From a bacterium (GTDB taxonomy: Bacteria; Zhuqueibacterota; QNDG01; DTFT01), in contig JAUCQC010000228.1 in NCBI GenBank assembly GCA_030372965.1, forward strand, positions 15,203 through 79,202: a stretch of DNA of 64,000 nt, written 5' to 3'. Below are positions 22,481-43,479 of the stretch, piece after piece (position 1 is the first letter of the stretch; every line of letters begins with the position of its first letter). The notes under the pieces are model-generated. The model was not told the origin of the DNA, did no database searches, and saw only the letters and a list, made by a program, of their open reading frames with translations. A program made the position numbers and the translations under genes.

Positions 22481-22765
22481 ATGATGGATCTTCAGTTCAT
22501 CGACATGCTGGAAGAGAAGGTGAACCGGATGGTTCAGCAGCTCGGACAGCTCAAGACGGAGAACCGCGAACTCCGGATGCGGAACCAGGAATTGCAGGCC
22601 ATCCTGGAGGATAAGGAACGCGCGGTGTACACCCTGCGGACCGAACTCGACCAGTCCAGGGCCGTCCAGGGGGAAATCGAGAATTATCGCAAGAGCCAGG
22701 ACCGGATACGGTCCAAAGTTGAGACACTGCTGGAGAAGCTGAAGGATTTCGAGAATATCCCCTGA
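22481..22765 (+). CDS. Small coiled-coil protein, ZapB-like (putative division-associated)
   Basis: 94 aa, heptad-rich (LEEKVNRMVQQLGQLKTENRELRMRNQELQ), located directly upstream of zapA. Confidence 0.45.
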   Translation: MMDLQFIDMLEEKVNRMVQQLGQLKTENRELRMRNQELQAILEDKERAVYTLRTELDQSRAVQGEIENYRKSQDRIRSKVETLLEKLKDFENIP

Positions 22766-22837
22766 CGCGCCGTCCGCGCGTCTGGGGCGCAGACCCGGTC
22801 ACGTTGAAGGAATTTGAAATCGAACGGGGTCGTTCCG

Positions 22838-23140
22838 ATGGAATCTGACAAAAACGTTCTGAAAGTCAGAATCTACGGCGCCGAATACTTGATCCGAGGA
22901 CAGGCGGACGTCAATTACATGCAGTCGGTTGCTGAATACGTGAATGACAAGATGCTTGAAATCGATCAGACGATTCGGACCGATTCCTCGCTCAAAGTGG
23001 CCATACTCGCCACACTGAACATCACCGACGAGCTGTTCCGTGAGCGGTCGGAATCGGAAGCCATTCGGAACGAACTCGAAAATAAAATACGGGAGCTGAA
23101 TCTTCTGATCGACCGGCAGTTGTCCGCATCGGACGTGTGA
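22838..23140 (+). CDS. zapA: Cell division protein ZapA
   Basis: VRIYGAEYLIRG..., VAILATLNITDEL, and a C-terminal coiled coil. I prefer the ATG at 22838 over the tracked TTG at 22814. Confidence 0.8.
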   Translation: MESDKNVLKVRIYGAEYLIRGQADVNYMQSVAEYVNDKMLEIDQTIRTDSSLKVAILATLNITDELFRERSESEAIRNELENKIRELNLLIDRQLSASDV

Positions 23141-26566: not shown

Positions 26567-28275
26567 AACTGTCCCGCGCCTTTTTGCCCACACTCAAGGA
26601 GACTCCCGCGGACGCGGTGATTCCGAGCCACCGTCTCATGATCCGGGCGGGTCTCATCCGCCCGCTGGCCGCTGGCGTCTACTCCATCCTGCCGCTCGGC
26701 TGGAAGGTCCTGAAGAAGATCATGGCCATCGTACGCGAGGAGATGGACCGGATCGGCGGCCAGGAGCTTCACATGCCCGCTCTGAATCCGGCCGAAATCT
26801 GGGACGAGACGGGCCGGAACGCGGACTTCGGGGACGAGATTTTCCGTCTCAAGGACCGTAAGGACCGCCCCCTCGTTCTGGCGCCCACGCACGAGGAAAT
26901 CATCTGCGACCTGGCCCGGAAGTTCGTCAAGTCCTACAAGGATCTTCCGCAGATGTGGTACCAGATCCAGAACAAATTCCGGGACGAACCGCGCCCCCGG
27001 TCGGGTGTCATCCGGACCCGTCAGTTCTTCATGAAGGACTCCTACAGTCTGGACAGCGACGAGGAGGGTCTCGACCTTTCCTACCGGCTGCACGCGGACG
27101 CCTACCGGGCCATCTTCAGCCGCTGCGGCCTCGATTTCCACGTGGTCGGCGCGTCGAGCGGTCTGATGGGGGGGAAGGTTTCGCAGGAATTCATGTTCGA
27201 GTCCGAATTCGGAGAGGACACGCTGGCCATCTGCGAATGCGGGTACGCGGCCAACCTGGAGGTCGCGTCCGCCAGAATCGAGACGGCTGAGTATCCGTCC
27301 GCTCCGCTCCAGCGGGTCGAAACGCCCGGAAAAAGGACCATCGGGGAAGTGGCCGGTTTTCTCAAAAAAGAGCCCCTTCGTTTCGCCAAGGCCGTTGTGA
27401 TGGTCGCGGACGGGAAAACCGTCATGGTCCTCGTCCGGGGCGACCACGAACTCAATGAAAACAAGCTCCAGTCGTTCCTTGGCGCGGCCGTCCGGCCCGC
27501 GCATCCGGAGGAGATTCTCGCGGCCTGCGGAGCGGAGGCCGGATTCGTGGGGCCGGTTCAGCCGTCCGGACCGGTCCGCATCCTGGCCGATCAGGCCCTG
27601 GCCGGACAACGGGACCTGGTCGTCGGCGCGAATCTGCGGGATCACCATTACACCGGCGCCGAACCCGGCCGCGATTTCAAGGTCGACGCCTTCGGCGATT
27701 TCCGGAATGTCTCCCCGGGAGACGCCTGCGTTTCCTGCGGCCGGCCGCTCCGCGTCGCGAACGCCATTGAACTCGGACACATCTTCAAGCTCGGCACCAA
27801 GTATTCATCCGCCATGAAGGCCACCTTTCTGGACCGCAACGGAAAGGAAAAGCCGATCATCATGGGCAGTTACGGCATCGGCATCGAACGGATTCTGGCC
27901 GCGGCGATCGAGCAGGGACATGACGAAAAGGGCCTGATCTGGAATTCCGTGCTCACGCCCTATCACGTCCACCTGATTCCCGTGAAGATGGACAACCCGG
28001 AGATCGTCCGCGTTTCGGAATCGCTGTACGGCACGCTCGGCGCGGAGTCGTGGGAATGCCTGCTGGACGACCGGTCCGCCTCGCCGGGCTTCAAATTCAA
28101 GGATGCCGATCTGATCGGCATCCCTTTGCAGGTGGTCATCGGAGACCGCTGGATCCGGGAGAAAAAGCTGGAACTCCGGATCCGCCGCACGGGAGAAACG
28201 ACGCTGATCGACGAAAACGAATTGTCGCCGCGGATCCGCGACTATTTCGGAGCGGAACGGGAGGGAGCATGCTGA
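26563..28275 (+). CDS. proS: Proline--tRNA ligase (bacterial type)
   Basis: The TTG at 26563 overlaps the folD TGA (TTGA), with AAAGGAG 9 nt upstream. KLSRAFLPTLKE, MIRAGLIR, PTHEE, FRDEPRPRSGVIRTRQF, and an anticodon-binding C-terminus. Confidence 0.92.
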   Translation: MKLSRAFLPTLKETPADAVIPSHRLMIRAGLIRPLAAGVYSILPLGWKVLKKIMAIVREEMDRIGGQELHMPALNPAEIWDETGRNADFGDEIFRLKDRKDRPLVLAPTHEEIICDLARKFVKSYKDLPQMWYQIQNKFRDEPRPRSGVIRTRQFFMKDSYSLDSDEEGLDLSYRLHADAYRAIFSRCGLDFHVVGASSGLMGGKVSQEFMFESEFGEDTLAICECGYAANLEVASARIETAEYPSAPLQRVETPGKRTIGEVAGFLKKEPLRFAKAVVMVADGKTVMVLVRGDHELNENKLQSFLGAAVRPAHPEEILAACGAEAGFVGPVQPSGPVRILADQALAGQRDLVVGANLRDHHYTGAEPGRDFKVDAFGDFRNVSPGDACVSCGRPLRVANAIELGHIFKLGTKYSSAMKATFLDRNGKEKPIIMGSYGIGIERILAAAIEQGHDEKGLIWNSVLTPYHVHLIPVKMDNPEIVRVSESLYGTLGAESWECLLDDRSASPGFKFKDADLIGIPLQVVIGDRWIREKKLELRIRRTGETTLIDENELSPRIRDYFGAEREGAC

Positions 28276-29630
28276 AGATCCCCGGTTCGAAATCCGTCCA
28301 GACGGTCCTGAAGGTCTCCGAGATACAGGCCGACCCCGAACTCTTCGCGATTCCCGGCGAGACGCCCTCACCCGAGGACATCCGGTCGCTCCTGGAGAAG
28401 CGGTACGCGACGGATTTCGGAAAACTGACGGTCTCCCTGGAGGACGACGTCATCCGCATTTCATTCAAGCCCCGGTCCGTCGACGTGAACGCCGAGCAGA
28501 TCCACAGCGCCGCCGTCCGTCTCGCCCGACAGCGTCAGTTCGAACCGGCCCTGGAAAAATGGAAGCAGGCCGTGTCGGTGAATCCGGACGATTTCGAATA
28601 CCATTACCACATCGGTCTCGTTCTGTACGAGCAGCGGCGTTACGACGAATCCGGCCGGGCCCTCGAACGGGCCGTCCGCATCTGTCCGATCCATTACAAG
28701 TCGCATCTCGCGCTCGGATTGAGCCGGATAAAAATGAACCGGCTCGACGAAGCGGTCCGTCATTTCGCGGAATCCGTGCGCCTGCACCGCGAAAACGTGC
28801 TCGGCTACCTGAATCTCGGCGCCGTGGCCAGCCTGCAGAAACGCCATAATGAGGCCATCGAAGCCTTCAATCACGCCATCCAGTACAATCCCCGGGAAAG
28901 CCGAGCGTATCTCGGAATCGCGAAAATCTACGTTCACCTGAACGACACCGAGGCCGCGAACAGCTATTTCAAGAAAGTCATCGAACTGGCTCCGGGCACG
29001 CCCATCGCGGAATTCGCGAAGAAGTCAATATCCGAGTCAACGGCGGAAACCGCGACGGAAGTGCTGCAGGGAGACCGACTGGCGGCCCTCTCCAAGGGTA
29101 CCGGATACGCGCTGGCCGGCAATTACACGGCGGCCGCCGAACATTACCAGATCTATCTTCGCAACCAGACTTCGGACGATTTTGCCTGGTACCTGCTCGG
29201 AGAAGCCGAAATCCGGAAAGGACGGCTGGACGAAGCCGCGGACGACTTTCGGAAATGTGTCCGTTTGAATCCGAAAAAAGGCCTGTACCAGAAAGCACTC
29301 GGCACGATTTACCATTTCCAGAAGAAACCCGCGGAAAGCGCCGAATGTTTCAAGCGGGCGATTGAACTCGGAAAGATCGATCCGATGGTGGTGACGCTGT
29401 ACGGCATACAACTCCTGCGCCTTCGCAAAATAGACGAGGCCATGCACCAGTTCCGCATGGCCCTGAAGAAAAATCAGAACAATCCGCTGGCCATGTACCA
29501 GCTTGCCTACGCGTATTCACTGAAGAACGACAATAAAAAGGCGATGGAATGGCTGGACAAGGTGAACGCGGTGGAATTCTTCGCGCCGATCAAGGAGCAC
29601 GCCAGAAGGCTGGTAAATTCCCTGAAATAA
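28269..29630 (+). CDS. Tetratricopeptide-repeat protein
   Basis: The ATG at 28269 overlaps the end of proS. Repeated 34-aa A..Y/F..A pattern (e.g. WKQAVSVNPDDFEYHYHIGLVLY, AIEAFNHAIQYNPRESRAYLGIAKIY). Confidence 0.8.
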   Translation: MLKIPGSKSVQTVLKVSEIQADPELFAIPGETPSPEDIRSLLEKRYATDFGKLTVSLEDDVIRISFKPRSVDVNAEQIHSAAVRLARQRQFEPALEKWKQAVSVNPDDFEYHYHIGLVLYEQRRYDESGRALERAVRICPIHYKSHLALGLSRIKMNRLDEAVRHFAESVRLHRENVLGYLNLGAVASLQKRHNEAIEAFNHAIQYNPRESRAYLGIAKIYVHLNDTEAANSYFKKVIELAPGTPIAEFAKKSISESTAETATEVLQGDRLAALSKGTGYALAGNYTAAAEHYQIYLRNQTSDDFAWYLLGEAEIRKGRLDEAADDFRKCVRLNPKKGLYQKALGTIYHFQKKPAESAECFKRAIELGKIDPMVVTLYGIQLLRLRKIDEAMHQFRMALKKNQNNPLAMYQLAYAYSLKNDNKKAMEWLDKVNAVEFFAPIKEHARRLVNSLK

Positions 29631-29653: not shown

Positions 29654-29681
29654 GCTTCGCATAAGATGTATTATGTATACT
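29654..29681. other. dif-like XerC/XerD recombination site candidate GCTTCGCATAA-GATGTA-TTATGTATACT
   Basis: 28-bp layout of two 11-bp arms around a 6-bp core, with the inner CATAA-N6-TTATG palindrome. By hand it matches 20/28 positions of E. coli dif and 21/28 of B. subtilis dif, both recalled from memory. It lies in the AT-rich gap where gene orientation flips. Confidence 0.55.
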
Positions 29682-30035
29682 TATTGATCGTCATTTTGTT
29701 TTGAAACCCAAGACAATGTCATTCTCTATACTTCCTCATCATTCCCCTGATCATGACTTCCCTTTCATTTAATTTATTATTATCAGTATGTTAAGCCGCC
29801 TTTCTGACGGTTTGCGATCTGAAACAGTTCGCATCTATTTTTTTCGCATCTGACATTCTAATAAGCATCCTCTTTATTCGGATTCATTTATTGATGACCG
29901 TTATTCTCGAACCAATTCTCCAGGTCGTGATTTATAGATATTGTGAGATTCACGAGATTCAATCACTGAACGTGATCGAGTCCTAAACAGTTCACTTTAT
30001 GTCCGTCATTTTTGCGGAATGCACATTTATTACCT

Positions 30036-30066
30036 AAAAATAAAATCCCGGCATGAAAGCCGGGAT
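30036..30066 (-). terminator. Rho-independent terminator downstream of tRNA-Arg
   Basis: On the - strand: ATCCCGGC-TTTCAT-GCCGGGAT, followed by TTTTATTTTT. Confidence 0.75.
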
Positions 30067-30083
30067 GGATTGCGTATACCGGG

Positions 30084-30157
<74 letters not shown>

Positions 30158-30220: not shown

Positions 30221-32167
30221 CTACTGCGTCCGCAAAGCCGCCACAGTCAATCCCCTGGGTATCGCGGGCGGGGTCAAATGGATTTCGACCGTTTCTCCCG
30301 AACGAATTTCGGATGAAACCGTTGATTGCGAATTCATCATTCCATTGTCAGGCAGCCGGTAATGGGCTGTTCCCTCTGCTACGGAGCCATCCAGGGCCAG
30401 CGAACCCGTGAAGACGGTTCCGGGAACGGTTCCGGTCAGAGGAATGGTTGATACGGTTCCATCCGCTTCATCCATGTACAGGGGGCCGGGATTTTTGACA
30501 ACGGGTTCCGAAGCGGTCAACTCAACGCTCAGCACCTTTTTCAGAAGCCGGAGGGATTGAATCGTCGCGTAGAGTTCCTTCTCCGTGACCGGCACTGGAT
30601 CCGGATCGACTTGCGGAAAGTAAAGCGGTTCGTATTCAAAAGCGCCGATATCCGGATTCTGTCCGTTGTACGGATAGGAAACGCCGTCCCCGGCCTTCCA
30701 GGATATGCTGCGGTCGATGGTGATGCGGTTGTTCGCGTAATCCGCCGAGAGGATCAACAGATTCTTCTGAGCGCCGATCTGGATGACATCTCCCTGACCG
30801 GGAATGCCGAACCCGTCCGTGAGACACCGCGCGGATTCCAGCGCCACAACGGTTCCCGATCCCGCGGAGACGGTCCGGGTCAGCACGGTTCCCTGATCGA
30901 TGCAACCGGACTCTTTTTTCAGCTTGAAATTGTACAGGCCGGCGTCCATGTCGATCCATTCGAGTCCGTGAAAGGTCGTTTTCCTCGAGTCAAAGGGGGC
31001 CGAGACAAAACCCGGCTGGCCCGTGAGGGTCGTCGGCGCGAACCTTCTTTTCCATTCCGCGAGTGACATGAATCCGAGCCAGTAGATCTCCGTCGCGTCG
31101 CCGAGTTCGCCCCAGACCCAGTTATTCTCGGACTTGATCCCGGTCTGATTGTCCGCGTCCTCGAGAATGATCGGGCAGATTTGATCGTACCGCGCCGTGC
31201 GTTTGCGCCCGTAAATGATATTGTTCTTCAGTATGGCGTTGTGAACCCACTGATCCGTCAGGTACAATTCGGCCATGTTCTGGCAGCGGTTGGTATCGGC
31301 CATGTTCCGGAAGAGAATGTTGTGGGTCATGGCCAGATTCCCGGTGTTGTTGTTCAGGACGCCGGCGCCTCCATTGTTATAGAAGATGTTCCGGGTCATC
31401 TGGTGAAGACCGTCCGTCCCGGCGAGATCCCAGGTGAATCCGTTTCCGTCCCAGTAGGACCCGTCCCGTTTCTGCCAGTTCGCGTACATGACGTTCCGGC
31501 GGACGATCGAGAACCATCGGATGCCGGAATCGAGCAGTTCCCGGTTGTTGATGGAGGCGCCGTCCCCCCACCCGCTGTCTCCGTCCGCCTTCCACCCGTT
31601 GTGGTGGAGAACGCAGTCCTGTATGAGGACATGATTCGATCCGACGGTGTTTAGCCCGGCGTTTCCATTGTCGTACGCGACGAGATCATCCAGAAACACG
31701 TAGTCCGCGTAGTAAACCGATATCCCGTCCTGCTGATAGCCGTGAAAGGAGAGATTCCGGATATGGAAATGGGTTTTCGTGAACGGCGTCGAAAGCTGCC
31801 CCTGAATGATAAATCCGTACTGTCCTGAACCCGTGATGTCGGGGCGGGTTCCGGGGTCTCCGATCACCGTGATCCACTTTCCGGGAGCGCCTGAATTCGC
31901 GAACGGAATGTCGCTCTCCACGTAGGTGCCGGCCAGAACGATCAGGCTGTCTCCGGCGGCCAGTATTGAAGCGGCTTTCCGTATGGTTTTCCAGGGCGTG
32001 GAACGGTTCATGGCCTGGCTGTTCGTCCGGCCGTCGTTTCCGGACGGTGAAACAAAATAAGTGGATGCCGTCAAGGTGGCCGACCAGAAGCCCAAGAGCA
32101 GAATCGGAAAAACTTTCCCGCAACCGTTTCCGACCGCCACGAATCGGGGCAAATATTTCCTTTTCAT
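30221..32167 (-). CDS. Secreted right-handed parallel beta-helix repeat protein (pectate-lyase-fold; possible polysaccharide lyase/hydrolase)
   Basis: Signal peptide (LLLGFWSATLTAS). YFVSPSGNDGRT...PWKTIRKAASILAAGDSLIVLAGTY is typical of DUF1565/PbH1 N-termini. Repeated GN/HN-rich beta-helix rungs (NGNAGL, HHNGW, YNNGGAGV, NNII). Confidence 0.7.
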   Translation of the reverse strand: MKRKYLPRFVAVGNGCGKVFPILLLGFWSATLTASTYFVSPSGNDGRTNSQAMNRSTPWKTIRKAASILAAGDSLIVLAGTYVESDIPFANSGAPGKWITVIGDPGTRPDITGSGQYGFIIQGQLSTPFTKTHFHIRNLSFHGYQQDGISVYYADYVFLDDLVAYDNGNAGLNTVGSNHVLIQDCVLHHNGWKADGDSGWGDGASINNRELLDSGIRWFSIVRRNVMYANWQKRDGSYWDGNGFTWDLAGTDGLHQMTRNIFYNNGGAGVLNNNTGNLAMTHNILFRNMADTNRCQNMAELYLTDQWVHNAILKNNIIYGRKRTARYDQICPIILEDADNQTGIKSENNWVWGELGDATEIYWLGFMSLAEWKRRFAPTTLTGQPGFVSAPFDSRKTTFHGLEWIDMDAGLYNFKLKKESGCIDQGTVLTRTVSAGSGTVVALESARCLTDGFGIPGQGDVIQIGAQKNLLILSADYANNRITIDRSISWKAGDGVSYPYNGQNPDIGAFEYEPLYFPQVDPDPVPVTEKELYATIQSLRLLKKVLSVELTASEPVVKNPGPLYMDEADGTVSTIPLTGTVPGTVFTGSLALDGSVAEGTAHYRLPDNGMMNSQSTVSSEIRSGETVEIHLTPPAIPRGLTVAALRTQ

Positions 32168-32203
32168 GGCAAATACCCCTTTCGATAACCCCTTGTTTTC
32201 CTG

Positions 32204-32232
32204 TATATAAGCCTATTACCATTTCTTCACAA
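32204..32232 (-). promoter_or_regulatory. Possible promoter TTGTGA-N17-TATATA for the beta-helix gene
   Basis: The hexamers on the - strand are at 32232-32227 and 32209-32204, 37 nt upstream of the ATG. It lies downstream of the terminator hairpin at 32268-32297. Confidence 0.35.
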
Positions 32233-32260
32233 TCCTATATATAGGCAAAGCAGGGGCCAA

Positions 32261-32297
32261 TAAAAATCCCCGTGAAAACGACTTCTGTTTCACGGGG
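32261..32297 (-). terminator. Rho-independent terminator ending the polysaccharide operon
   Basis: 10-bp perfect stem CCCCGTGAAA/TTTCACGGGG (32268-32297), followed on the - strand by ATTTTTAT. Confidence 0.7.
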
Positions 32298-32322
32298 CGG
32301 GCGCGGGGGCTCTGATCCAATG

Positions 32323-33264
32323 TCAACCCGAATTCGGGCTCCATTCTCTCAGGATGCGGTCGTAGGGCGCGACCCACAATCGATCCTTCAGAGAACCCAG
32401 AAATCGGATGAAATCCCTGAACCGGCCGAGTCGACCGATGTCAGCCGGGTCGAAATACAGATTCACGTACGACCCCGTGTCCAGGGCGGTTCTTATGACT
32501 CTTTCGATCCTGTCGAAAAAAGCGGTTTCCCGGTCATGTGGAACCGGCCCGTTCGTTCTTGGAAGACGGTTGTACGCGTCAAAACAGGTGTTCGGATAGG
32601 CCGGGTCGAAAGACAGCGGAAATTCCCAGATTCCGCACGATTCCCGGTACGGCATTCCGTGTCCGGGGCACTGGATGGAAATTCTGGAACTGGAGTACTG
32701 GTAGCCGAGTCCGGCCAGAATCGGGTACACGTCCCGCGTGTGGGAGTCGCCGAAATGAGGCGTGCGGAAACCCGACGGACGGTAATTCAGCCGGCCGCGG
32801 AAGATGCGGTCCGCGTTGACAATCTCCGCCCGTCTGTCTTCAGGGGATATCTCATTGAACCGCTCGTCCGGATGAAAACGGCTGTTGCTGGGATGGGTGT
32901 GGGTGTGGTTGACCAGTTCGTGGCCGCGGCGGATCAGTTCCAGGTGGCTGTCCGGATCCAATTCAACCCATTTCGCGATGCAGGCGAACGAGGCGGCCAG
33001 CCCCTCCCCTGCCAGAGCGTCGAGCAGGTCCGGCATCGCCCGGTAATCGGCCTCATGGTCGCAGTCGAAAGACAGGGTGAGACACGCCTGTTTTCCCGGC
33101 CAGGGCATGTGTTCCCCCCGGTTGTGCGCGTGGAATGCGGAGTTGAACCCGTCGGACCAGATGCGTCCGACGATCCGGCGGAGCGCTTTCGCCGCGATTC
33201 CAGGTTTGTCCCTCCGGAATGCGGAGGCCACGAGTTCCGCCATCTTCATACTGATTTTCAACAT
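32323..33264 (-). CDS. Polysaccharide deacetylase (NodB-homology, CE4-like)
   Basis: LTLSFDCDHEADY, FACIAKWVE, GHELVNHTHTHP, and FRTPHFGDSH. Confidence 0.8.
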   Translation of the reverse strand: MLKISMKMAELVASAFRRDKPGIAAKALRRIVGRIWSDGFNSAFHAHNRGEHMPWPGKQACLTLSFDCDHEADYRAMPDLLDALAGEGLAASFACIAKWVELDPDSHLELIRRGHELVNHTHTHPSNSRFHPDERFNEISPEDRRAEIVNADRIFRGRLNYRPSGFRTPHFGDSHTRDVYPILAGLGYQYSSSRISIQCPGHGMPYRESCGIWEFPLSFDPAYPNTCFDAYNRLPRTNGPVPHDRETAFFDRIERVIRTALDTGSYVNLYFDPADIGRLGRFRDFIRFLGSLKDRLWVAPYDRILREWSPNSG

Positions 33265-34154
33265 TTCTCCCTGTCGTTTCCAAACGAGCGTATGCCCCGG
33301 ATCAGGGTGTCGGTTTCATTGTCCGGCAGAAGACGCACGAGTTTGCCTCCCGCTTCCCGGAGCACCTTGAGGTCGGTCGCCAGGATGGGAAGCCCCATCG
33401 CCGCCGCCTCGGCGAACTTGATGGGCGTCACGTGTTCCGTAACCGCGTTCCTGGGCCTCGGCACCACGACCGCGTCGGCGCGTTCGGCCAGAATCCGGAT
33501 CATTTCCGAATGGGGAACGCTCTCGTGAAAACGGACATTTTTCGTGTCGGTGCCGCGGATGCCGTAGCAGTGGAGCTGATAGAGGGGATCGGATTCGAGC
33601 CGGGCGAACGCCTCGATCAGGTTCCGGAACCCCTGCCAGGGCTTTTCGGATCCCATGTAGACGAAATGAAGCCGTCCGTCCGACGGGCCTTTCCGGCGGA
33701 TCGCCGGAAGACGAACGGGGATGGGCAGCACGAACATCCGATTCTCCGGAAATCGGAATCCGGTTCTGAGATGACCGCGCATGGACTCGCTGAGAACGCG
33801 GACCACGGCGGTTTTCAGCGCGAGTTCAAACGTCAGGCGGGACAGCGCGATTCGGCCGCGCGATCGGCCCGCCATTTCAAGCTCGAGCCACGGGAAGGAA
33901 GCGAGATCGTACACGGTGATCCTGCGGGCCAGCAGGCAGAAAATGATCCATCGGAGAAACAGTTTCTCGGAGCGGATCCACACGACCTCCGCGCTCCGCA
34001 GGTCACGGAACCGGGCTCGGCCGGTGAGACGCACACGGTTCCATTGCCCGAGAAAATCCGCCAGGTAGCGCATGTGGATGGTGTGTCCGCAGACCTTTTC
34101 GGGATCGTTGTCCGAAAGGATCAGGATGTTCCGGTCTCGAAAGGGCGGGTTCAT
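33258..34154 (-). CDS. Glycosyltransferase, GT-B fold (GT4/GT1-like, short)
   Basis: C-terminal half has FVYMGSEKPWQGF, VVVPRPRN and KFAEAAAMGLPILATD (E-x7-E-like region). Confidence 0.7.
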   Translation of the reverse strand: MNPPFRDRNILILSDNDPEKVCGHTIHMRYLADFLGQWNRVRLTGRARFRDLRSAEVVWIRSEKLFLRWIIFCLLARRITVYDLASFPWLELEMAGRSRGRIALSRLTFELALKTAVVRVLSESMRGHLRTGFRFPENRMFVLPIPVRLPAIRRKGPSDGRLHFVYMGSEKPWQGFRNLIEAFARLESDPLYQLHCYGIRGTDTKNVRFHESVPHSEMIRILAERADAVVVPRPRNAVTEHVTPIKFAEAAAMGLPILATDLKVLREAGGKLVRLLPDNETDTLIRGIRSFGNDREKC

Positions 34155-35527
34155 CCGGACTCCGGGCCGGCGGGGTGGATTTCGGAGACGAACGCCCGGT
34201 GCTTGCCGCTGGCGTCCGGCGGGATGGAATCGGGGAACCGGACGTCCAGGCGAACCAGGCCGTCGAAGTCCTCTTCGAAGGCCTTCCGGAAATAGGCTTC
34301 CACCTCGGACTGATCGTCCGGATTGCAGACCGCCTCCACATCAAATCGGTCCAGGCTCTTCTGGATGATCCGGTACTGCCTGATTTTCCTGCCGATCTCG
34401 TAGAAGCTGTACTGTCCCATGTGGCAGAAGAGGACCGGGGAAACGCGCGAACCGTCGGGAAGATACACCACATCGGATTCCCTTCCAATGTCGACCCGGA
34501 TCCGGGCGAGCCCCGATCCGCAGGCGCAGGGTTCCGGATCGGGACGCACCAGGTCTCCGACCTCGTAGCGCAGCAGGGGCGTCGCGCGGTTGTTCAAATC
34601 GGTCAGGATCAAGCTTTTCGCGTCCGCGGGTCCCGGCCGGGGCGGATCCGCGAATTCCGCGATGAGGTTCTCCTCCATCAGGTGCATGCCGCCGGAAGGG
34701 CATTGAAACGCGATGATGCCGACCTCGCTGGCTCCGTATTCGTCGATCACGGGACAACCGAACGCCGACTCCAGGAAACGACGCTGGTACTCGTAGAGGC
34801 GTTCGGAAGTGGTGCAGACGGCGCGGATGCCCAGCTCGGCCGGGTTGCGTCCGCTTTCCTCGAAAAGCCGGGCGATGCCGAAGATGGAGGTGACGTAACC
34901 GCGGACGTAGGCGCCCCGGTGTTTCCGAAGAACGTCCCAGGTTTCGGCTGCCGTGGCGTCCGTCAGCCGCATGACCGAATGGCGGAAACGGTTCTCAATC
35001 CAGCTCATGCGAAGGGTCCGCTTCAGCGACGGCCGGAGATGGTAGGTGCCCCAGATCTCCAGGACAGGCGCGCCGATGTCCCACCCCCACCATCGGCGGC
35101 TCCGGAACAGGGCCGCCATCCGGTGGCTTTCGGCTTCCGTGTCCGCGCAGAGCACCTTGGGCTCCCCGGTCGAACCGCTGGACTGGTGACAGTACGTCCT
35201 GCGGAAGAGTCCGGGAACGCTGATCGCTTCCTTGTTTTCCCGCAGAAGGGACTTGGTAAGCACCGGCAGACGGGACAGATCGTCCTGAGAGCGGAATGAA
35301 CCGGCGGTGAGGCCGTTCCGCTTCAGCAATTCCCGGTAATAGGGCGTTCGGGCGCCGCAGTCCGCGATGAGGGAACGGAGTTTTTCAAGCTGATGCTCCC
35401 GGATCTGCTCCGGGGTCCTGTTCGCGCCGGCTTCGAGCTCCCGGAGTTTGGACCGCACCGTCAGGCCCCGCGATTTTTCGTACAGCGGGTATGAGACGGT
35501 CCGGATGAACCATTGCTTCAGTCTCAT
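34151..35527 (-). CDS. Adenylate-forming ligase of the PaaK / coenzyme F390 synthetase / CapK family
   Basis: YYRELLKRNG, LPVLTKSLLREN and the SSGSTGEP P-loop. The ATG at 35527 overlaps the upstream stop (ATGA). The longer tracked ORF (to 35809) overlaps the flippase gene. Confidence 0.8.
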   Translation of the reverse strand: MRLKQWFIRTVSYPLYEKSRGLTVRSKLRELEAGANRTPEQIREHQLEKLRSLIADCGARTPYYRELLKRNGLTAGSFRSQDDLSRLPVLTKSLLRENKEAISVPGLFRRTYCHQSSGSTGEPKVLCADTEAESHRMAALFRSRRWWGWDIGAPVLEIWGTYHLRPSLKRTLRMSWIENRFRHSVMRLTDATAAETWDVLRKHRGAYVRGYVTSIFGIARLFEESGRNPAELGIRAVCTTSERLYEYQRRFLESAFGCPVIDEYGASEVGIIAFQCPSGGMHLMEENLIAEFADPPRPGPADAKSLILTDLNNRATPLLRYEVGDLVRPDPEPCACGSGLARIRVDIGRESDVVYLPDGSRVSPVLFCHMGQYSFYEIGRKIRQYRIIQKSLDRFDVEAVCNPDDQSEVEAYFRKAFEEDFDGLVRLDVRFPDSIPPDASGKHRAFVSEIHPAGPESG

Positions 35528-36954
35528 GCCGTATTTTCCCTTCGACTGAGCAGTTCCCGGAACATGCGGATCTCGCCGGTTCCGAATGTCCGGATCGCGA
35601 GGAGCATGGCCAGGTAGGCCAGCCCGTACACGCACAGAAGAATGAGGGGCGGGTGTTGACGGAAAGGCAGGAGCGCGGCGCCCAGGGCTCCCGCCGAAAT
35701 CAGCGCGCGGGCGTGTATTTTCACCGGGTGGACGCCCGGTATCCGAGATGACAGCCACGCCGCCGAGAGGATCGTGATGAGCGCCTGGGACGCCGCGCTC
35801 GCGGCGCACAGACCGATGCCGCCGGTAGACGGGATCAGCAGGAGCGCGAGAATGACATTGAACGCGGTGCCGAAGGCCTGGAAACGGACGAAAACCGATT
35901 CGCGGTCCATGGACGAAAACGCGACCATGAAAGCCTGGTTGAGAAAGGCGAACACGAGCATCCAGAGCAGGATTCGCAGCATCGGAACCGAAGGGCCGAA
36001 AGACGATCCGTACAGAAGCCGGATGATCGGACCGGCGAGGACGGAGAAACTGACCGCGATGGGGATGACGAGAATGAAAAGGTATTTCATGGATTTTTCG
36101 TAACTCTGGCGGAAGGAGTCATCGTCTCCCGCCTCGCGGAACTTCGACATGGCGGGCAGCACGGCGCTGGTGAACGCCATGGGCAGGAAGGTCAGAACCC
36201 CGCAGATCCGGAGGGCCGCGGAAAAGTAACCGGTTTCGGATTCCCCCTTGAAGAAGGTCAGCAGAATCGTTCCGATCTGGGTGTTGACGGTCACGATGAT
36301 TCCGAGGGCGGCGAAGGGCAGGGCCGATCGGAACAGGCCGGCGTAGAAACCGGTCCGCCGCGTGAAAACCGGCCGGCTGTAGCGGCTCACGAGGATCCTG
36401 AGGCCGGCCATGAAAAACACCGCGTACAGGACGAGGCGGACGGCCAGCATCGGCAGGATTCCGTACCCCATCCAGATGACGGCCACGCCGGTGACCGAAA
36501 CGGACAGATTGAGCCCGATCTTGTTGAAAACCTCGTGAACGGCGTTCTGATGGGCCCGGTAAATCGCGTAGAAAACGTCGAGGACGGAGGAAAAAACGAG
36601 TATGCCGGCGCTGACGAGGACCACGGCGCTCTTATCCGCGCCGGTTCGCATCAGGAGCAGGGTGAACCAGACCGCGGCCAGAACCGCCGCGCCCATGAAG
36701 GTTTCAAGAACGAGAAGATCGCCGAGAACGGGCCCGGTGCGATCCGGGTGCCGGGCCAGGTCCCGCACGATCATGGTTCGGAAACCGAAACGCGTGATGA
36801 ACCCGAAAAGTTCGGTGAAGGAGAGGGCGAACGCCAGAAGGCCGAGTTTTTCGGCTCCGAGCCTGCGCGCGATCAGGATGGTCAGGAGCGCTCCAAGCGC
36901 GCGCGTGACGACTTCCGCGGATACGAGAAGCGTGGTGTTCCGCGCGATGACCAT
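35524..36954 (-). CDS. Oligosaccharide flippase (Wzx, MOP/PST family)
   Basis: About 12 predicted TM segments. N-terminal IARNTTLLVSAEVVTRALGALLTILIARRLGAEKLG is typical of PST flippases. I prefer the ATG at 36954, just after the upstream TAA. Confidence 0.8.
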   Translation of the reverse strand: MVIARNTTLLVSAEVVTRALGALLTILIARRLGAEKLGLLAFALSFTELFGFITRFGFRTMIVRDLARHPDRTGPVLGDLLVLETFMGAAVLAAVWFTLLLMRTGADKSAVVLVSAGILVFSSVLDVFYAIYRAHQNAVHEVFNKIGLNLSVSVTGVAVIWMGYGILPMLAVRLVLYAVFFMAGLRILVSRYSRPVFTRRTGFYAGLFRSALPFAALGIIVTVNTQIGTILLTFFKGESETGYFSAALRICGVLTFLPMAFTSAVLPAMSKFREAGDDDSFRQSYEKSMKYLFILVIPIAVSFSVLAGPIIRLLYGSSFGPSVPMLRILLWMLVFAFLNQAFMVAFSSMDRESVFVRFQAFGTAFNVILALLLIPSTGGIGLCAASAASQALITILSAAWLSSRIPGVHPVKIHARALISAGALGAALLPFRQHPPLILLCVYGLAYLAMLLAIRTFGTGEIRMFRELLSRRENTA

Positions 36955-36955
36955 T

Positions 36956-38458
36956 TTATCGGAGGCCAATGGGACCCCCTTCCCCGCCGCCGGCCGGGCT
37001 CTCGATTTGCGGCGCACCGGACAGGGCGACGATTGCCGCGGCGAACAGCCAGAAAGCCAGGAAGGCCTCGGAATCGATGGTCGCGTTGTTGACGGTGTGG
37101 TGGATCAGGAGCCCGGTGATCCCGCTGATGAAGCCGATGATCAGCTGTTTGGAACGGTCCGGCAAAGGCGCGGAAAGGGAACGCGCCGCCCGGACGTACA
37201 ATCCAAGGGTGAACGCGAGAAACGCGACGAGTCCCGGAAGACCGATCTCGGCCGCCAGTTGAAGATAGACATTGTGAACCGGGTGAAAAAAGTCAAGCGT
37301 CAGACCGGTCTTGTCGAACGGGGCCATGGACAGGGTGTAATTGTTCAGGCCGACCCCCAGCCAGGGGAATTTACGGATCATGCCCAGCGCGATTTGCATC
37401 ATCGGTATTCTCGACTGCGCGGATCCGTAATCCTCGCCCGTGAAGCGCAGGAGGATGAAGTCGCGGAGCAGCCAGAGAACCAGGGACAGGACGGACAGAA
37501 CGATCAGCCCCCGGAACAGGGCCCGGCTCCGGTTCTCGGCGATCCGCCAGTGGAGAAATGCGAAAACGAGCAGGCCGGCGGCGAAGCCGATCCATCCGCC
37601 GCGGCTGAACGTGAAAACGAGCAGCATGGTGCCCGCGAGAACGGCCGCCATCAGGAGGAGTCGCGGAAGCGCCCGTTTGAGCGAGGACCACCAGCCCATG
37701 AACAGGAGCAGCATCATGACCAGATAGCTCGCGAAACGGTCCGATCCTTCGAGTGTGCCGGAAACGCTGATCATGGAACGATCGCCGATGCGCCGGACGC
37801 TGTTGGTCGTGGCGTTCGTCAGGATGCCGAGGGCGACATCGCGGTTGAGCGCGTACTGGACGGTCCCGACCGCGAGCTCGATAAGGTAGACGACCAGAAG
37901 CACCGTCAGGGCGGTGGATACGGCCCCGCGGTCCCGGAACGCGTCGGACAGGACCAGAAAAAGCAGAATCGCCTTGGTCAGCTCCAGAAGCTGGTACAGG
38001 CCGAGTCGAGGATTGACCGCCTGTGTCAGGGAAAAAGCCGAAAAGGCGAAAAGCAGAAGAAGCGGAACCCAGACCCACATCGGTGATCCGGGCCTCCCGG
38101 ACCGCATTCCGAGGAAGGACGGGGGGCGAAGCGCGACGAAACCCAGCAGCACGATGTTCCAGAGCGCCACGATAACGCCCTTGGCGCCTCCGGAATGATC
38201 CGGATTCAGAAAAAACGTCTTGTCGATATTGATGATCAGCGTCGCGATGAGGAGTGAAAACAGGGCGGCGCCGGTTTTACGGAACAGAAAGGCCGCCAGA
38301 CCGGCTCCCGCGGCGAGAAGGCCGAAGAGGACGAGGACCGGGGGCAGAGAGAGGAACCGCATGGCCGCCGCTCCGGCCAGGACACCGGCCGTGAATCCGG
38401 GCAGCAGGATGCGGATGAACCGGCCGCCCGGTCCGCTGACGCGTGCCCGGCCGCTCAT
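36956..38458 (-). CDS. O-antigen ligase/polymerase family membrane protein (Wzy-like)
   Basis: Polytopic membrane protein with the Wzy_C-like segment FTFSRGGWIGFAAGLLVF. The ATG at 38458 overlaps the upstream TGA (ATGA). Confidence 0.7.
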   Translation of the reverse strand: MSGRARVSGPGGRFIRILLPGFTAGVLAGAAAMRFLSLPPVLVLFGLLAAGAGLAAFLFRKTGAALFSLLIATLIINIDKTFFLNPDHSGGAKGVIVALWNIVLLGFVALRPPSFLGMRSGRPGSPMWVWVPLLLLFAFSAFSLTQAVNPRLGLYQLLELTKAILLFLVLSDAFRDRGAVSTALTVLLVVYLIELAVGTVQYALNRDVALGILTNATTNSVRRIGDRSMISVSGTLEGSDRFASYLVMMLLLFMGWWSSLKRALPRLLLMAAVLAGTMLLVFTFSRGGWIGFAAGLLVFAFLHWRIAENRSRALFRGLIVLSVLSLVLWLLRDFILLRFTGEDYGSAQSRIPMMQIALGMIRKFPWLGVGLNNYTLSMAPFDKTGLTLDFFHPVHNVYLQLAAEIGLPGLVAFLAFTLGLYVRAARSLSAPLPDRSKQLIIGFISGITGLLIHHTVNNATIDSEAFLAFWLFAAAIVALSGAPQIESPAGGGEGGPIGLR

Positions 38459-39813
38459 CGGCCGGCCTCCCGGTTTTCCTCCGCGGCCAGGCCGGCGGAA
38501 AGGCCGTAGAAAGCCCAAGCCTGGGACCAGCGCATGTACGGAATCCGGATGCGGTAATGCCGGTGTGTCTGGTAGTAGAAGAAACCCGACGGGTCCTGCA
38601 TGTGCGTCACCAGCCAGCGGATCAGGGATCGTCTTCTGAGACGGACCGTGTCATCCTGTGGAACCGCGCTGAGGGCGTAAACCGCGGCAAAGGCGTGGAT
38701 ATCCTTGGGGAACGTGCGGTCGTGCCAGAGAGAAGCCGATCCGTCTTCCCTGAAGAATGTCCGCAGAAAGTATGCCGTTCCCCTCTCGAGGATCGAAGCG
38801 AACGCGGGGTCCCCGGCACAGGTCTGGTAGCGGCACAGGCTTTCCAGGATGAAAGCGGTGTGGTGCAGATCGATCCAGTTCTGGGAAGGGGACTCGCCGT
38901 AGACCCAGGATCCGTCTGGAGACTGATGCTCGGCGACATAGTTCATCATCCGGCGGGCAGAACGAAGCCACTCACGACGATCCAGCATCGACCCGATCCG
39001 GGCGAGAAAGGAGGCGCCGATTGCATTTGAGTTGAAAATCCGCGACCGGTCGAGCGGCGTGTATCCGAGGCAGAGCCGGACGCCGTCATCCACGACCCGC
39101 GGCAGGTCTTCCAGAATGAAGCGCGCCGACCCCTCGGCCATCGCGAGAGGCCCGGGGTCGCCTGTCGCGGCATGAGCGTCCAGGAGCGCGTGGCCCGCGA
39201 AACCGGTGTTGACGATGGTCGGCGTGTAGGCGGGATACAGCTGGTTCCGGTTCTGCCAAGGGAAATGATAACCCCAGCAGGGATGGTCAAATCCCGGAGA
39301 CCGGTTCTCCCGGAGCAGACGGACCAGCAGGCGGATCCGCTCCTCCCGGTGGTCCGGAACGGAGGCGGCCGGCTGAATCGCGTACCCGCTCAGGAAGAGC
39401 GCCAGGCCTTTCGGGTTGAGGCCGCCGGGTATGCCCAGCATCGGGCGCAGGTTGAACGGGAGGCGTCGCATGACCTGGGTGAAACCGATCCGCGCCAGAG
39501 GATGGTTGAAAGGAAAGCGCGACGCGGCCGGCGCCAGAAGGGCGTCATATGGATCGAACCCGCGGTACGATTCGCGCTCGACGTACACGGTCAGGAGCGA
39601 GAGGGATTTCCGGATGAGGGCGCTGAAACGGCCGTCGCTCAACGGTCCGGTTCGCCGCGGATCCGGAACGGGGCAGCCGGCGAATGGCCGGTCCTCCGTC
39701 CGGTTCCGGACGCTCCGCTCAGGCCGGAAGCCCGGGACGCGGTGTTCCGCGGACACGCGCTTCTTCGAACCGCGCGCAAACCGCCCGGCCGGGGAATCAG
39801 CGCCCGGTGACAT
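38455..39813 (-). CDS. Hypothetical protein, possibly alpha/alpha-toroid fold (function unknown)
   Basis: Periodic helical-hairpin-like motifs (GFDPYDALLAP, GYHFPWQNR, DGSWVYGE...HHTAFILESL). I recognise no confident family. The N-terminal ~50 aa are R/P-rich, so the true start may lie further downstream. Confidence 0.5.
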   Translation of the reverse strand: MSPGADSPAGRFARGSKKRVSAEHRVPGFRPERSVRNRTEDRPFAGCPVPDPRRTGPLSDGRFSALIRKSLSLLTVYVERESYRGFDPYDALLAPAASRFPFNHPLARIGFTQVMRRLPFNLRPMLGIPGGLNPKGLALFLSGYAIQPAASVPDHREERIRLLVRLLRENRSPGFDHPCWGYHFPWQNRNQLYPAYTPTIVNTGFAGHALLDAHAATGDPGPLAMAEGSARFILEDLPRVVDDGVRLCLGYTPLDRSRIFNSNAIGASFLARIGSMLDRREWLRSARRMMNYVAEHQSPDGSWVYGESPSQNWIDLHHTAFILESLCRYQTCAGDPAFASILERGTAYFLRTFFREDGSASLWHDRTFPKDIHAFAAVYALSAVPQDDTVRLRRRSLIRWLVTHMQDPSGFFYYQTHRHYRIRIPYMRWSQAWAFYGLSAGLAAEENREAGR

Positions 39814-41212
39814 GCACCTCCGGCGCCTTCAGGCGGTTCCACGGAAAAGAGACCGAACGCCGGCCGCTCTCATCGGCCGGATTCATGCGGAGATTTCGGA
39901 CGGCTTCCCCCTTTACCAGAACCCGGACCGGTTTTCCGTCCGGAACATGGAAGGTGATGCCCTGGAGGCTCACGCTGTCGGCTTCCATCTCACCGAGAAG
40001 CGGGTCGCGTATTCCGTGTATCCGTATGGCGATTCCCGCGGAATCCTCGTCGAAGGACCAGCGGATCGCGTTGCGGACCGTGACGTAATTCAGCAGTTTG
40101 GATGTGGTCGTGACGAGAATTCGTCCCTCCTTCGAATGGGCGGAGAGATTGCGCAGCGCGACCGCGGTTTCGGGGGCCACCCACGGCGCTCCTTCCCCGT
40201 TTTTCCCGAGATGCGTGTAGACGATGCCCGTTCCGCCGACCTCCACGAGTCGCCTCAGAACGGCCTCGGAGATGTTGTCGGACAGTCCGCGGCTGTTCGC
40301 GCCGTATCCGATACCGTCCGGATGGACGTCGAATCGCATGAATTCATAGACGCGCCTGCCGTCCTCCAATCGCCGGACGCCGATCAGGGCATTGTCCCGA
40401 TGCAGAAAATAACGCGTTCCGCAGAGTCCGAACCTCGACAGAACCCTCTTGAGGAATGACTTGCCCGCGTTCCGCAGGGACTTGGGACATCGGTTCCGCC
40501 CGGGCGAGAGATAGGACCGCCAGGAGACCGGGGCGTCCTGTCCGATGATGGAGGTGCTGCTCCCGCAGCTGATGTACCGCACGGAGTACGGAATCGTCAG
40601 GTCCGCGTGATAGGCCGCGTCGCCGATCCGGTCGCCGCGGTTCGTGGGGAACCATTTCGACAGATTGGAGCGCGCGTCGCTGTGGTTGATCCAGACCGGC
40701 ACGCGGCAGCCGTCGCGCTCCAGTGCCCGGAGCGCGTCCACGGCCTGCACCCGGGTCGTGCATCCTTCGCCGTACGAGTGCAGACAGTCGATAATCCCGG
40801 CGCGGATGAAGTCACGGATGATCCGCCTGTCCTCCGGCCGGTCCGAAAACCAGGAGAACTCATTCCGGCCCGGGCGGTCGAACAGGTAGAAGCTGTTACC
40901 GATCTCCAGCCCGACGCCCCGGCCGAAGGCGGTTTCGTGATCCGTATTGAGGAATTCCTGTATGGCGAGGAATTCCTCCGGCGTTTCCGTGTTGTCTATG
41001 TCGCTGCAGACACTGAGCGCGGCGCGGTACGGATACGGGAATTTCCGCAACGAGACCGGCGCACGGCTCCGCGCATCCTCCCGGTACAGCCGGCCGGTGC
41101 GCGAAAAATCCCATTGAACGGCCAGGATCAGGAAGACCGGAATCAGGGCCGTGACCGCGAGGCTTCTGAGCAGGGTCCGCCGCGGCGGACGATTGGAATC
41201 GGGCCGGTTCAC
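39797..41212 (-). CDS. Hypothetical membrane-anchored protein (function unknown; possibly deacetylase/hydrolase-like)
   Basis: Single N-terminal TM (LLRSLAVTALIPVFLILAV), then FPYPYRAALSVCSDIDNT and WINHSD motifs. The GTG at 41212 overlaps the upstream TGA (GTGA). The tracked 581-aa ORF overlaps the glycosyltransferase gene. Confidence 0.5.
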   Translation of the reverse strand: MNRPDSNRPPRRTLLRSLAVTALIPVFLILAVQWDFSRTGRLYREDARSRAPVSLRKFPYPYRAALSVCSDIDNTETPEEFLAIQEFLNTDHETAFGRGVGLEIGNSFYLFDRPGRNEFSWFSDRPEDRRIIRDFIRAGIIDCLHSYGEGCTTRVQAVDALRALERDGCRVPVWINHSDARSNLSKWFPTNRGDRIGDAAYHADLTIPYSVRYISCGSSTSIIGQDAPVSWRSYLSPGRNRCPKSLRNAGKSFLKRVLSRFGLCGTRYFLHRDNALIGVRRLEDGRRVYEFMRFDVHPDGIGYGANSRGLSDNISEAVLRRLVEVGGTGIVYTHLGKNGEGAPWVAPETAVALRNLSAHSKEGRILVTTTSKLLNYVTVRNAIRWSFDEDSAGIAIRIHGIRDPLLGEMEADSVSLQGITFHVPDGKPVRVLVKGEAVRNLRMNPADESGRRSVSFPWNRLKAPEVHVTGR

Positions 41213-42354
41213 GGCGCCCCCGTCGAAGCGAGACGGTAGCAGGCGCCGAAGATTTTCTCCGCGTTTTTCATGCCGTACAGCCGGATCGCTTTCTCGCGGT
41301 TGTGTTTTCCCATCCGCTTTCGGAGGGACGGACGGGAAATGAGAGCGGCCAATGCACGGGCCAGGCCCTCCGGATCGCGCGGGGGAACCAGCAAACCGCC
41401 CGTGCCTTCCTCGACCATTTCCGGAACGGCCCCCACCCTCGTCGCCGCCACAGGGAGACCCGCGGACATGGCTTCGAGCACGGACATGGGAAATCCCTCG
41501 CCATGGCTGGGCAACGTGAAGATGTCCGCGGCCGACATCCATTCGCGGACGGCCGGCGGGGACAGGTTTCCGGTGAAGAGCACGCGTTCCCCCCCCCGCA
41601 TGGACTTCCCGATCCGCCTGAGTTCACCTTCCGCTCCTCCCCCGCCGATCACGCAGAACCGGAGTTCCGGGCGCGACGGCAAAAGGATTTCGGCCGCGCG
41701 GATCAGTTCAAACACCCCTTTGGCCGGGTACAGGTGCGGAGCGGCGAACAGAACGACACAGGCCCCGGATGGAATCCCGAGTTCGGACCGTGTCTTACTC
41801 CGGGGCGGCGGTTCCTCCGTTTCCACGAGGTTCGGGACACGGTCGATCCGGTCTCTCCGCCCCAGGGCGCGGAGCGGCCGCTCCTGCATCGCGGAGAGAA
41901 CGCCGATCCGCGTCGGAAGCGACAGAAGAATGCGCGGCGCGGATCCCGCGGCCGGATGCCGGCGCATGAACGATTCCAGGTCTCCGCCGTGGATCTGCAG
42001 AAAAACGGGCTTGCCCGCGAGCCGCGAAAGGATCACGTACATCGAATCCCGCCAGAATGACCAGTCGCCGAAGGACGTGTGCACATGCACCAGGTGCGGG
42101 GTCCTTCGAACGAGAAACTGGATGAAACGGGCCAGGTCCGACAGCACCCGTGCCGCTTTCACCGGGACGGATTCCGCCTCGTAAGATGCGGATCCGCCCT
42201 TCCGTGAATAGGTGTGGAAGGGCAGAAGCGCGTGCCTGCGGTTCAGGTTGGAACGCATCAGGTTGCCGATGCAGGCTGAGATTCCGCCGATGGCCGGGGG
42301 AAAAGCGCCGAGCATGGCGACGCGGACGCGCATTCGGCCTCTCCCCTCAGGCAT
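41209..42354 (-). CDS. Glycosyltransferase family 4 (GT-B, GT1-type)
   Basis: GGISACIGNL N-terminus, LFTGNLSPP, LPSHGEGFPMSVLEAMSAGLPVAATRVGAVPEMV (E-x7-E). The start may be the ATG at 42333. Confidence 0.85.
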   Translation of the reverse strand: MPEGRGRMRVRVAMLGAFPPAIGGISACIGNLMRSNLNRRHALLPFHTYSRKGGSASYEAESVPVKAARVLSDLARFIQFLVRRTPHLVHVHTSFGDWSFWRDSMYVILSRLAGKPVFLQIHGGDLESFMRRHPAAGSAPRILLSLPTRIGVLSAMQERPLRALGRRDRIDRVPNLVETEEPPPRSKTRSELGIPSGACVVLFAAPHLYPAKGVFELIRAAEILLPSRPELRFCVIGGGGAEGELRRIGKSMRGGERVLFTGNLSPPAVREWMSAADIFTLPSHGEGFPMSVLEAMSAGLPVAATRVGAVPEMVEEGTGGLLVPPRDPEGLARALAALISRPSLRKRMGKHNREKAIRLYGMKNAEKIFGACYRLASTGAP

Positions 42355-43456
42355 GCCCTGGGACGGTTCGGATCAGCTCGCGGGCCAGAAGGCCGGACAG
42401 GTCGGCATGCCCGCTCCCGGCGGCAGGCCGGATCCGCTTCCCGATCCGGATCCGCCCGATTTCCGATTCGTTCTCAATGAAGACCAGCCGTCCGGCGCGG
42501 TTCAGGTAACGGTCCACGGCCCCGCTCCTGCCCCGGAATATCGAGTACACCGGAACGCCCAGGGCCGCCGCTTCGCGGTTCATGGTGCCTCCCCCTCCGA
42601 CGACCAGATCCGAATGCCAGATCCAGTTCAGGCCGTCCACCGCGCGGTCCGGGACGATGAGCCTGCCCGGCAGACCGGAAACCCGTTGCCGCAGACTCGC
42701 AGCGTCGTCGATCGAACGCGGAAGGAACAGCACCGTGACGCCGCGCCGGCTCAGAAGGTATTCCGCCACCCGGTAAAAAAGGGTCTCGCTTTCGGGATTC
42801 CGGTAATGGGCCGAGAAGGACGGGGCGCGCAGCGTCACGATCACGGAATCCCGCGGAATTTTGAGCCGGTCGAATGCGGCCGAGTCTGGCCTGAAACGGT
42901 GGACATAGGCGTCCTCTTTCAAGCCGGGATAGGCGAATATTTTGGACCGGGGAACGCCCTTCTCCAGCAGAACGCGTTCCGGTATCGCGGATGGAAAGAA
43001 GAGCCGGGTCGCGAGACGGTTGGCGACGGCGAGAAAAACATGCTCGTAATCGGTCATGAAGACAGAGGGCATGCCGAGAAACGAGGCGGCCACGACCTGG
43101 TAGGTGGAACCCTGGCTGACCGCCAGGGACAGCCGCCGTCCCCGGCACGCGCGGACCAGCTGGGCGGTTCGAACGAGGAATCCGGCCGCTTTCGCGGCGG
43201 AATGTTTTCCGTAATCCCGTCCGATGACGAGAAAATCGAGGCCGTGCAGTCCGCACAGTTCCTTCACCTGAAACCGGTCCCGGACCGTGATGAAACACCG
43301 GTGTCCCATGCTCTCAAGAGCCCGTATCTGGGGAGAGAAGAAGAGGACGTGCGGCGGATGGCAGAGATCGAACCAAAAAGTCAAACGAGGGCCTCCCGGT
43401 TTGGCGACGCCCAGGCTCCGGCGGGAAACAGGAAGGCCGCCGGTCATGGGGGGCAT
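42347..43456 (-). CDS. DUF354-family protein (GT-B-like, uncharacterised)
   Basis: FWFDLCHPPHVLFFSPQIRALESMGHRCFITVRDRFQVKELCGLHGLDF matches my recollection of the DUF354 N-terminal signature (xWxDIxxxPHVxFF...GHEVxITxRD). Confidence 0.65.
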   Translation of the reverse strand: MPPMTGGLPVSRRSLGVAKPGGPRLTFWFDLCHPPHVLFFSPQIRALESMGHRCFITVRDRFQVKELCGLHGLDFLVIGRDYGKHSAAKAAGFLVRTAQLVRACRGRRLSLAVSQGSTYQVVAASFLGMPSVFMTDYEHVFLAVANRLATRLFFPSAIPERVLLEKGVPRSKIFAYPGLKEDAYVHRFRPDSAAFDRLKIPRDSVIVTLRAPSFSAHYRNPESETLFYRVAEYLLSRRGVTVLFLPRSIDDAASLRQRVSGLPGRLIVPDRAVDGLNWIWHSDLVVGGGGTMNREAAALGVPVYSIFRGRSGAVDRYLNRAGRLVFIENESEIGRIRIGKRIRPAAGSGHADLSGLLARELIRTVPGHA

Positions 43457-43479
43457 TGGATGCGGCCGACGGCAAAAAG

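Follow-up and report, generated by a model that had tools for sequence, protein, structure and literature searches.

The window analysed here, a 64-kb stretch of DNA, consists largely of two long runs of co-oriented genes that converge on a short intergenic region (Table 1). Context was annotated by simple gene calling and Pfam scans, the latter covering about 40 ORFs of the window. The left side opens with the end of dnaE, a homocysteine S-methyltransferase/MTHFR fusion, two histidine kinase genes and a sigma-54 activator gene, and continues with an FtsZ-like gene, tRNA-Val and a conserved block in the order thrS-infC-rpmI-rplT-pheST-zapB-zapA-rny-ymdB-folD-proS-TPR, which ends at a candidate dif site. 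The site follows the stop codon of the TPR gene by 23 bp and precedes tRNA-Arg(TCT) by 400 bp. Beyond the tRNA lie a polysaccharide-synthesis cluster, clpC, an ABC transporter, lysS, prfB and lysine-pathway genes, all on the reverse strand. The preliminary description had placed the site where gene orientation switches, and the annotation agrees, with the forward block ending and the reverse block beginning there. Chromosomal housekeeping genes in the window comprise dnaE, ftsZ, the aminoacyl-tRNA synthetase genes thrS, pheST, proS and lysS, ribosomal protein genes, and prfB. Tyrosine-recombinase and FtsK domains were sought, and no xerC, xerD or ftsK was found among the approximately 40 ORFs of the window or in the 10-kb flanks of the relatives' loci.

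Table 1. Coordinates of features in the 64-kb window.
Feature	Position	Strand	Remarks
Gene block left of the site	6-29.6 kb	+	24 kb co-oriented
FtsZ-like gene	12215-13819		534 aa
zapB and zapA	22481-23140		
TPR-repeat protein gene	28269-29630	+	Last of block; Pfam TPR matches; orthologues at 95% to 40% identity
Candidate dif 28-mer GCTTCGCATAAGATGTATTATGTATACT	29654-29681	+	Read directly from the window sequence
Left 11-bp arm GCTTCGCATAA, putative XerC-binding	29654..29664	+	10/11 match to family consensus ACTTCGCATAA
6-bp central region GATGTA, putative strand-exchange region	29665..29670	+	Clade consensus GATATA
Right 11-bp arm TTATGTATACT, putative XerD-binding	29671..29681	+	10/11 match to general consensus TTATGTAAACT
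AT-rich non-coding spacer abutting the XerD arm	29682..30044		363 bp, 36% GC
Terminator-like hairpin of tRNA-Arg(TCT)	30045-30066	-	Terminator scan; conserved in L122 and L124
tRNA-Arg(TCT)	30082-30157	-	First feature of the reverse block; ARAGORN and Rfam; conserved in L122 and L124
Gene block right of the site	30.1-64 kb	-	34 kb co-oriented
Polysaccharide cluster	30221-47600	-	
prfB (release factor 2)	57897-59000	-	
+1 programmed frameshift site of prfB	~58929-58923	-	CTT TGA C
Long ORF	4030-5313	-	
Long ORF	34151-35809	-	
Long ORF	38455-39813	-	
Long ORF	39797-41542	-	

Several features of the window are of separate interest. The FtsZ-like gene and the zapB and zapA genes lie 7-17 kb from dif, an arrangement kept in the distant relatives L144 and L145; in E. 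coli, the products of zapB, zapA and ftsZ link the Z ring to the terminus region. The polysaccharide cluster encodes a beta-helix protein, a deacetylase, glycosyltransferases, a flippase, Wzy, a Wzz/tyrosine-kinase-like protein, an epimerase and a sugar transferase; it is shared by the close relatives L122 and L124 but not by more distant ones. Its beta-helix protein has no exact match on record, and GC content is lower (0.52-0.59) in the first few kb right of the site. The frameshift site of prfB is of the classical type and is preceded by a short first frame, MSEELKRLLASDEERIQNLWRHL, closed by a stop. The four long ORFs listed individually in Table 1 gave no Pfam family at the thresholds used and have a good codon-position GC pattern.

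The 28-mer at the centre of the locus reads exactly as the preliminary description had given it, with two 11-bp arms around a 6-bp core. With up to three mismatches allowed, it occurs once in the 64-kb window and in none of 100 shuffles, and the same counts were obtained for the core CATAA-N6-TTATG. Kono et al. (2011) characterise dif by more than four complementary pairs between positions 7-12 and positions 17-22 (PMC3025954), and in the window site five of the six pairs between these positions (CATAAG and ATTATG) are complementary. An independent metagenome assembly, from run X1, carries an identical site sequence on one contig only, at a depth equal to that of its flanks. A hairpin or terminator at the site was considered and rejected, the fold of -1.3 kcal/mol being no better than that of shuffled sequence (z = 0.58); a known RNA was likewise discarded, as the site has no RNA family match.

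A search of one genome per species (GTDB representatives) was performed with the pattern TTCGCATAA-N6-TTATGTAWAC, which matched at least 120 DNA stretches, once per stretch, against approximately nine expected at uniform composition. The 120 stretches listed represent 119 different assemblies, with L019 and L114 being two contigs of one MAG. Individual family members are identical to the window site at 20-26 of 28 positions (120 matches listed). Among the matches listed, A stands at position 1 in 76% and at position 24 in 100%, C at position 2 in 58% and T at position 28 in 81%, and the pattern leaves these positions free. The central region of these matches varies but is rich in A and T, with (T/G)ATATA as a rough consensus. 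The T that the window has at position 24, in its XerD arm, is therefore found in 0 of the 120 family members among the matches listed, all of which have A. Since the pattern-free positions are also conserved, the matches constitute a true family with the consensus ACTTCGCATAA-N6-TTATGTAAACT, which is dif. The MAGs among the matches listed are labelled as delta proteobacteria, Binataceae, Myxococcales/Polyangiaceae, Gemmatimonadota and Fibrobacteria, and the same matches include Xanthomonadales-type genera (Luteimonas, Luteibacter and Lysobacter) and many Bacillota. The dif-type site lies at 51.6% of the record in the complete chromosome of Luteibacter sp. E-22 and at 63% of the record in Luteimonas sp. 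R10. A weight matrix made from the 120 dif-type sites among the matches listed gives the window site 42.7 bits, within the family range of 38-57, a score that is partly circular because the family was gathered with a pattern derived from the window site. The weight-matrix scan detected no second dif-like site above 5 bits in the 64-kb window.

The organism is represented by metagenomes only, from industrial waste, activated sludge and anaerobic digesters. The RNase Y of the window is most similar to proteins that carry the label 'bacterium' or candidate division KSB1, with 65-81% identity to the KSB1 proteins; one protein of the window was recovered from a 6.6-kb Logan contig only, and the largest recorded contig carrying the gene for an identical TPR protein is ~86 kb. 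Syntenic contigs of relatives were fetched via the TPR protein or RNase Y and scanned with the 120-site weight matrix. In eight related lineages the conserved thrS...proS-TPR block is followed by a nearly identical 28-mer in the same orientation, and, among the fetched loci, each lineage that keeps the block has one dif-type site at the block end. The site is ACTTCGCATAAGATATATTATGTATACT in L122, L124, L141 and L128, whose TPR proteins exhibit 95%, 85%, 53% and 51% identity to that of the window, respectively, and L142 (TPR 93%) differs from this sequence by a final base C. More distant TPR proteins accompany the sites ACTGCGTATAATATATATTATGTATAAT in L130 (45%) and ACTTCGCATAAGATATATTATGTTAACT in L132 (40%). 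Among the loci fetched via RNase Y, L144 (76%) has the site GGTTCACATAAGATATATTATGTTTACC, and in L145 (74%) the left arm has changed from ACTTCGCATAA to ACTTCGTATAA, the full site being ACTTCGTATAATATATATTATGTTAACT. In the most distant of the fetched loci, L146 (RNase Y 65%), the block is interrupted after folD, and there is no site within 10 kb. GC content of the relatives' loci ranges from 0.46 to 0.62. When the site is aligned together with 40 nt of either flank (A1), 20 of its 28 columns do not vary, and the flanking sequence is unalignable. The dif-like XerC/D reading put forward in the preliminary description is upheld by this 28-bp island of conservation in eight related lineages, together with the cross-phylum family.

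Positions 3-11 of the left arm are identical in L122, L124, L128, L132, L141 and L142, the six relatives whose left arm is that of the clade consensus, and L130, L144 and L145 each have one or two differences within these positions. The right arm TTATGTATA, with T at position 24, is common to L122, L124, L128, L130, L141 and L142. Given that T at position 24 is conserved across the closer lineages of the clade, it is the normal clade state rather than a defect. Two positions alone set the window site apart from the clade consensus: position 1 and, in the central region, position 15, which is G in the window. The T-variant pattern gave 0 matches in 2.9 million viral contigs, and a metagenome scan for it returned only 10 contigs, two of which are from the clade of the window.

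The left flank is common to all site-bearing lineages, whereas the right flank differs between lineages. The window, L122 and L124 have the polysaccharide cluster on this side; L128 has a different set, with MBOAT acyltransferase, beta-helix and glycosyltransferase genes; L130 has a response regulator and a histidine kinase; L132 has an NHL protein with frr, pyrH, tsf and rpsB; and L145 has tatA, pssA, psd, purC and purB. At least five right flanks that are unrelated and come from different lineages have genes mostly on the reverse strand, pointing to the site. L141 and L144 have one forward gene after the site, and so the site is not always exactly at the convergence. The post-dif spacers of these two lineages also contain a 64-nt stretch of 89% identity (5754-5817 in L141 and 16233-16296 in L144), which may be a shared promoter or leader. 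In the relatives that keep the block, dif remains with the genes ftsZ...zapB-zapA...proS-TPR and the opposite flank is reshuffled, an attachment that, if true, would amount to strongly one-sided evolution of the terminus.

The spacer that abuts the XerD arm is highly variable. In the window, it contains no ORF longer than 53 aa and has no RNA family match. In runs X3 and X4, contigs of close relatives follow the window sequence as far as 29682, one base past the last base of the site, beyond which 184-190 unrelated bp replace 355-359 bp; alignment resumes at 30038-30042, at the tRNA terminator. No similarity was detectable between the spacers of the window, L122, L124 and L142. Spacer sizes among close relatives are 187, 363 and 508 bp where the DNA is readable, and in P0004, a 78%-identical relative for which annotation only was used, the TPR gene is followed by a gap of ~1.3 kb that contains three small ORFs. 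The L124 spacer (11423-11930) contains two extra copies of the XerD arm at 11585-11608, one exact and one with a single mismatch, as well as a 55-nt direct repeat at 11505 and 11709, and L128 has a copy of the XerD arm with one mismatch at ~4242. No element genes adjoin the window site, and no IMEX bounded by two dif-like sites was found there. Within the window, 19 nt are directly repeated at 29679 and 29994 with 79% identity, and this repeat was judged too weak to represent the remains of an att site. The AT-rich spacer is most simply read as fast-evolving, unconstrained terminus DNA, and it may hold scars of elements integrated at dif via Xer. A broader proposal, that the DNA touching the XerD arm is a graveyard of small elements that were Xer-integrated at dif in this uncultivated lineage, is tentative and rather doubtful. 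Phage and plasmid records were also queried with the site and spacer, and the sole match was an unannotated phage record from human faeces (MT835876.1, 12636-12665), with 93% identity over 30 nt to dif alone (E = 0.01); this may be a dif-like attachment site or chance.

Signals of the replication terminus were sought in base composition and in oriented motifs. The local GC skew shows no switch in the direction expected of a terminus, the skew to the left minus that to the right of the site being -0.04 over 10 kb, -0.03 over 29 kb and -0.003 over 3 kb. In other genomes, 72 dif-type loci were measured with 3 kb on either side, and the skew difference is positive in 74% of them, with a mean of +0.065; among the relatives it is +0.11 in L130 and +0.02 in L132, and the closest relatives are without a terminus signal. 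AT skew in the window simply tracks gene orientation. Kono et al. report a distance between dif and the skew shift point of 0-1.39% of the genome at 1 sigma, with a maximum of 3% (PMC3025954). Since dif can be up to 3% of the genome from the shift point, a local GC-skew test is weak, and the shift point could fall outside the window. The known FtsK/SpoIIIE-orienting motifs GGGNAGGG, GAGAAGGG and GAAGAAG were counted, from which the motif of this lineage may differ, and gene orientation confounds a de novo search for such motifs. The KOPS-like polarity raised in the preliminary description was borne out for GGGNAGGG on the left of the site, with five forward and no reverse occurrences as expected, but not on the right, where the counts are six and five; the motif may not be the one used by the lineage. 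A position of the site at the terminus is suggested by convergent gene orientation only.

The 28-mer at 29654-29681 is well supported as a genuine dif-type Xer site under functional constraint, and it very probably serves as the chromosomal dif of an uncultivated relative of candidate division KSB1. Membership of the sequence family, architecture, a single copy in the window, the phylogenetic footprint and the convergence of gene orientation all support dif. The strongest evidence is comparative, namely the 28-mer at the same block end in eight related lineages. Resolution by Xer/dif is well-established biology, in which chromosome dimers are separated before cell division. By analogy with established XerCD/dif systems, the left arm would be bound by a XerC-type recombinase and the right arm by one of the XerD type. 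Should homologous recombination fuse the sister chromosomes into a dimer, an FtsK-type translocase would bring the two dif copies together at the division septum, and the recombinases would exchange strands across the 6-bp central region to give two monomers again. For this bacterium, recombinase binding, FtsK dependence and a position at the replication terminus are presumed. Only three features are mildly out of the ordinary: a T at position 24 that is specific to the clade, the lasting association of dif with one conserved gene block, and the hypervariable spacer on the XerD side.

The main alternative is that the locus carries a secondary dif-like site, either an IMEX attachment or junction remnant or a pseudo-dif, with the true dif elsewhere on the chromosome. 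This is unlikely, although a T in the XerD arm that is absent from all 120 family members among the matches listed, the replacement in close relatives of the DNA directly 3' of that arm, the extra XerD-arm copies in the L124 spacer and a local GC skew without a terminus mark are each consistent with it. The same T is, however, the conserved state in six lineages (L122, L124, L128, L130, L141 and L142), and its pattern is missing from the viral contigs searched. Moreover, the syntenic place of the site is constant across deep divergence, which is not expected of mobile-element junctions, and given that no other dif-like site exceeds 5 bits in the 64 kb, there is no element bracketed by two such sites.

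It is very unlikely that the 28-mer is instead a conserved chromosomal Xer-type site away from the end of replication, with the gene convergence reflecting operon layout only. At least five unrelated right flanks are also mostly oriented to the site, and growth is reduced when dif is moved closer to the origin, a finding that Kono et al. cite (PMC3025954); these points have to be set against GC skew and GGGNAGGG counts that lack a terminus signal, and against a left block that is one conserved gene cluster, so that its orientation counts as a single observation. An origin as a chance AT-rich palindrome, a transcription-factor operator or a terminator of the TPR gene would suit an inverted repeat (CATAA / TTATG) so soon after a stop codon, but is scarcely credible for a sequence whose asymmetric outer arms are conserved across phyla and whose 28 bp are conserved where the surrounding intergenic DNA has diverged.

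Read as a chromosomal dif site, the locus is an ordinary example of a well-known element, and is a landmark rather than a discovery. The dif consensus for the KSB1-like group, ACTTCGCATAAGATATATTATGTATACT, was not found in the searched literature; it can be used to find the terminus when genomes of KSB1-like uncultivated bacteria are assembled or oriented, and it also marks where to seek mobile elements that exploit Xer.

IMEX insert at dif, and a second dif-like site that is partly degenerate stays behind (PMC5357621); examples are the CTX, VGJ and TLC phages, the gonococcal genetic island and EludIMEX-1. The variable XerD-side spacer and the duplicated XerD arms of L124 resemble the scars of such insertions, whereas the window has neither a second dif-like site nor element genes beside the site. 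A plasmid multimer-resolution site of the cer/psi type was rejected, given the housekeeping genes in the window and 0 matches in 72,556 plasmid records. XerC/XerD sites of the ACTTCGCATAA-N6-TTATGTAAACT type have the 11-6-11 layout and the AT-rich centre in common with the window site, which differs from them in having G for A at position 1 and T for A at position 24. In E. coli, the recombinases that act at dif are XerC and XerD, activated by FtsK, and in B. subtilis they are CodV and RipX. The window site is identical to E. coli dif (GGTGCGCATAATGTATATTATGTTAAAT) at 20 of 28 positions, with the inner palindrome CATAA/TTATG shared, and to B. subtilis dif (ACTTCCTAGAATATATATTATGTAAACT) at 21 of 28, including 10 of the 11 positions of the XerD arm; the outer left arm and the central region differ from both. 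The preliminary description had counted these identities correctly, and the two reference sequences that it used are given in identical form by Kono et al. 2011 (PMC3025954). The difSL/XerS, difH/XerH and archaeal dif/XerA systems perform the same role at short sites composed of two inverted arms around a centre (PMC5357621). Their consensus sequences are other than that of the window site. At 31 bp, difSL is also longer than 28 bp. The fit of the window site to the classical 28-bp XerCD consensus would make a two-recombinase system the likelier partner.
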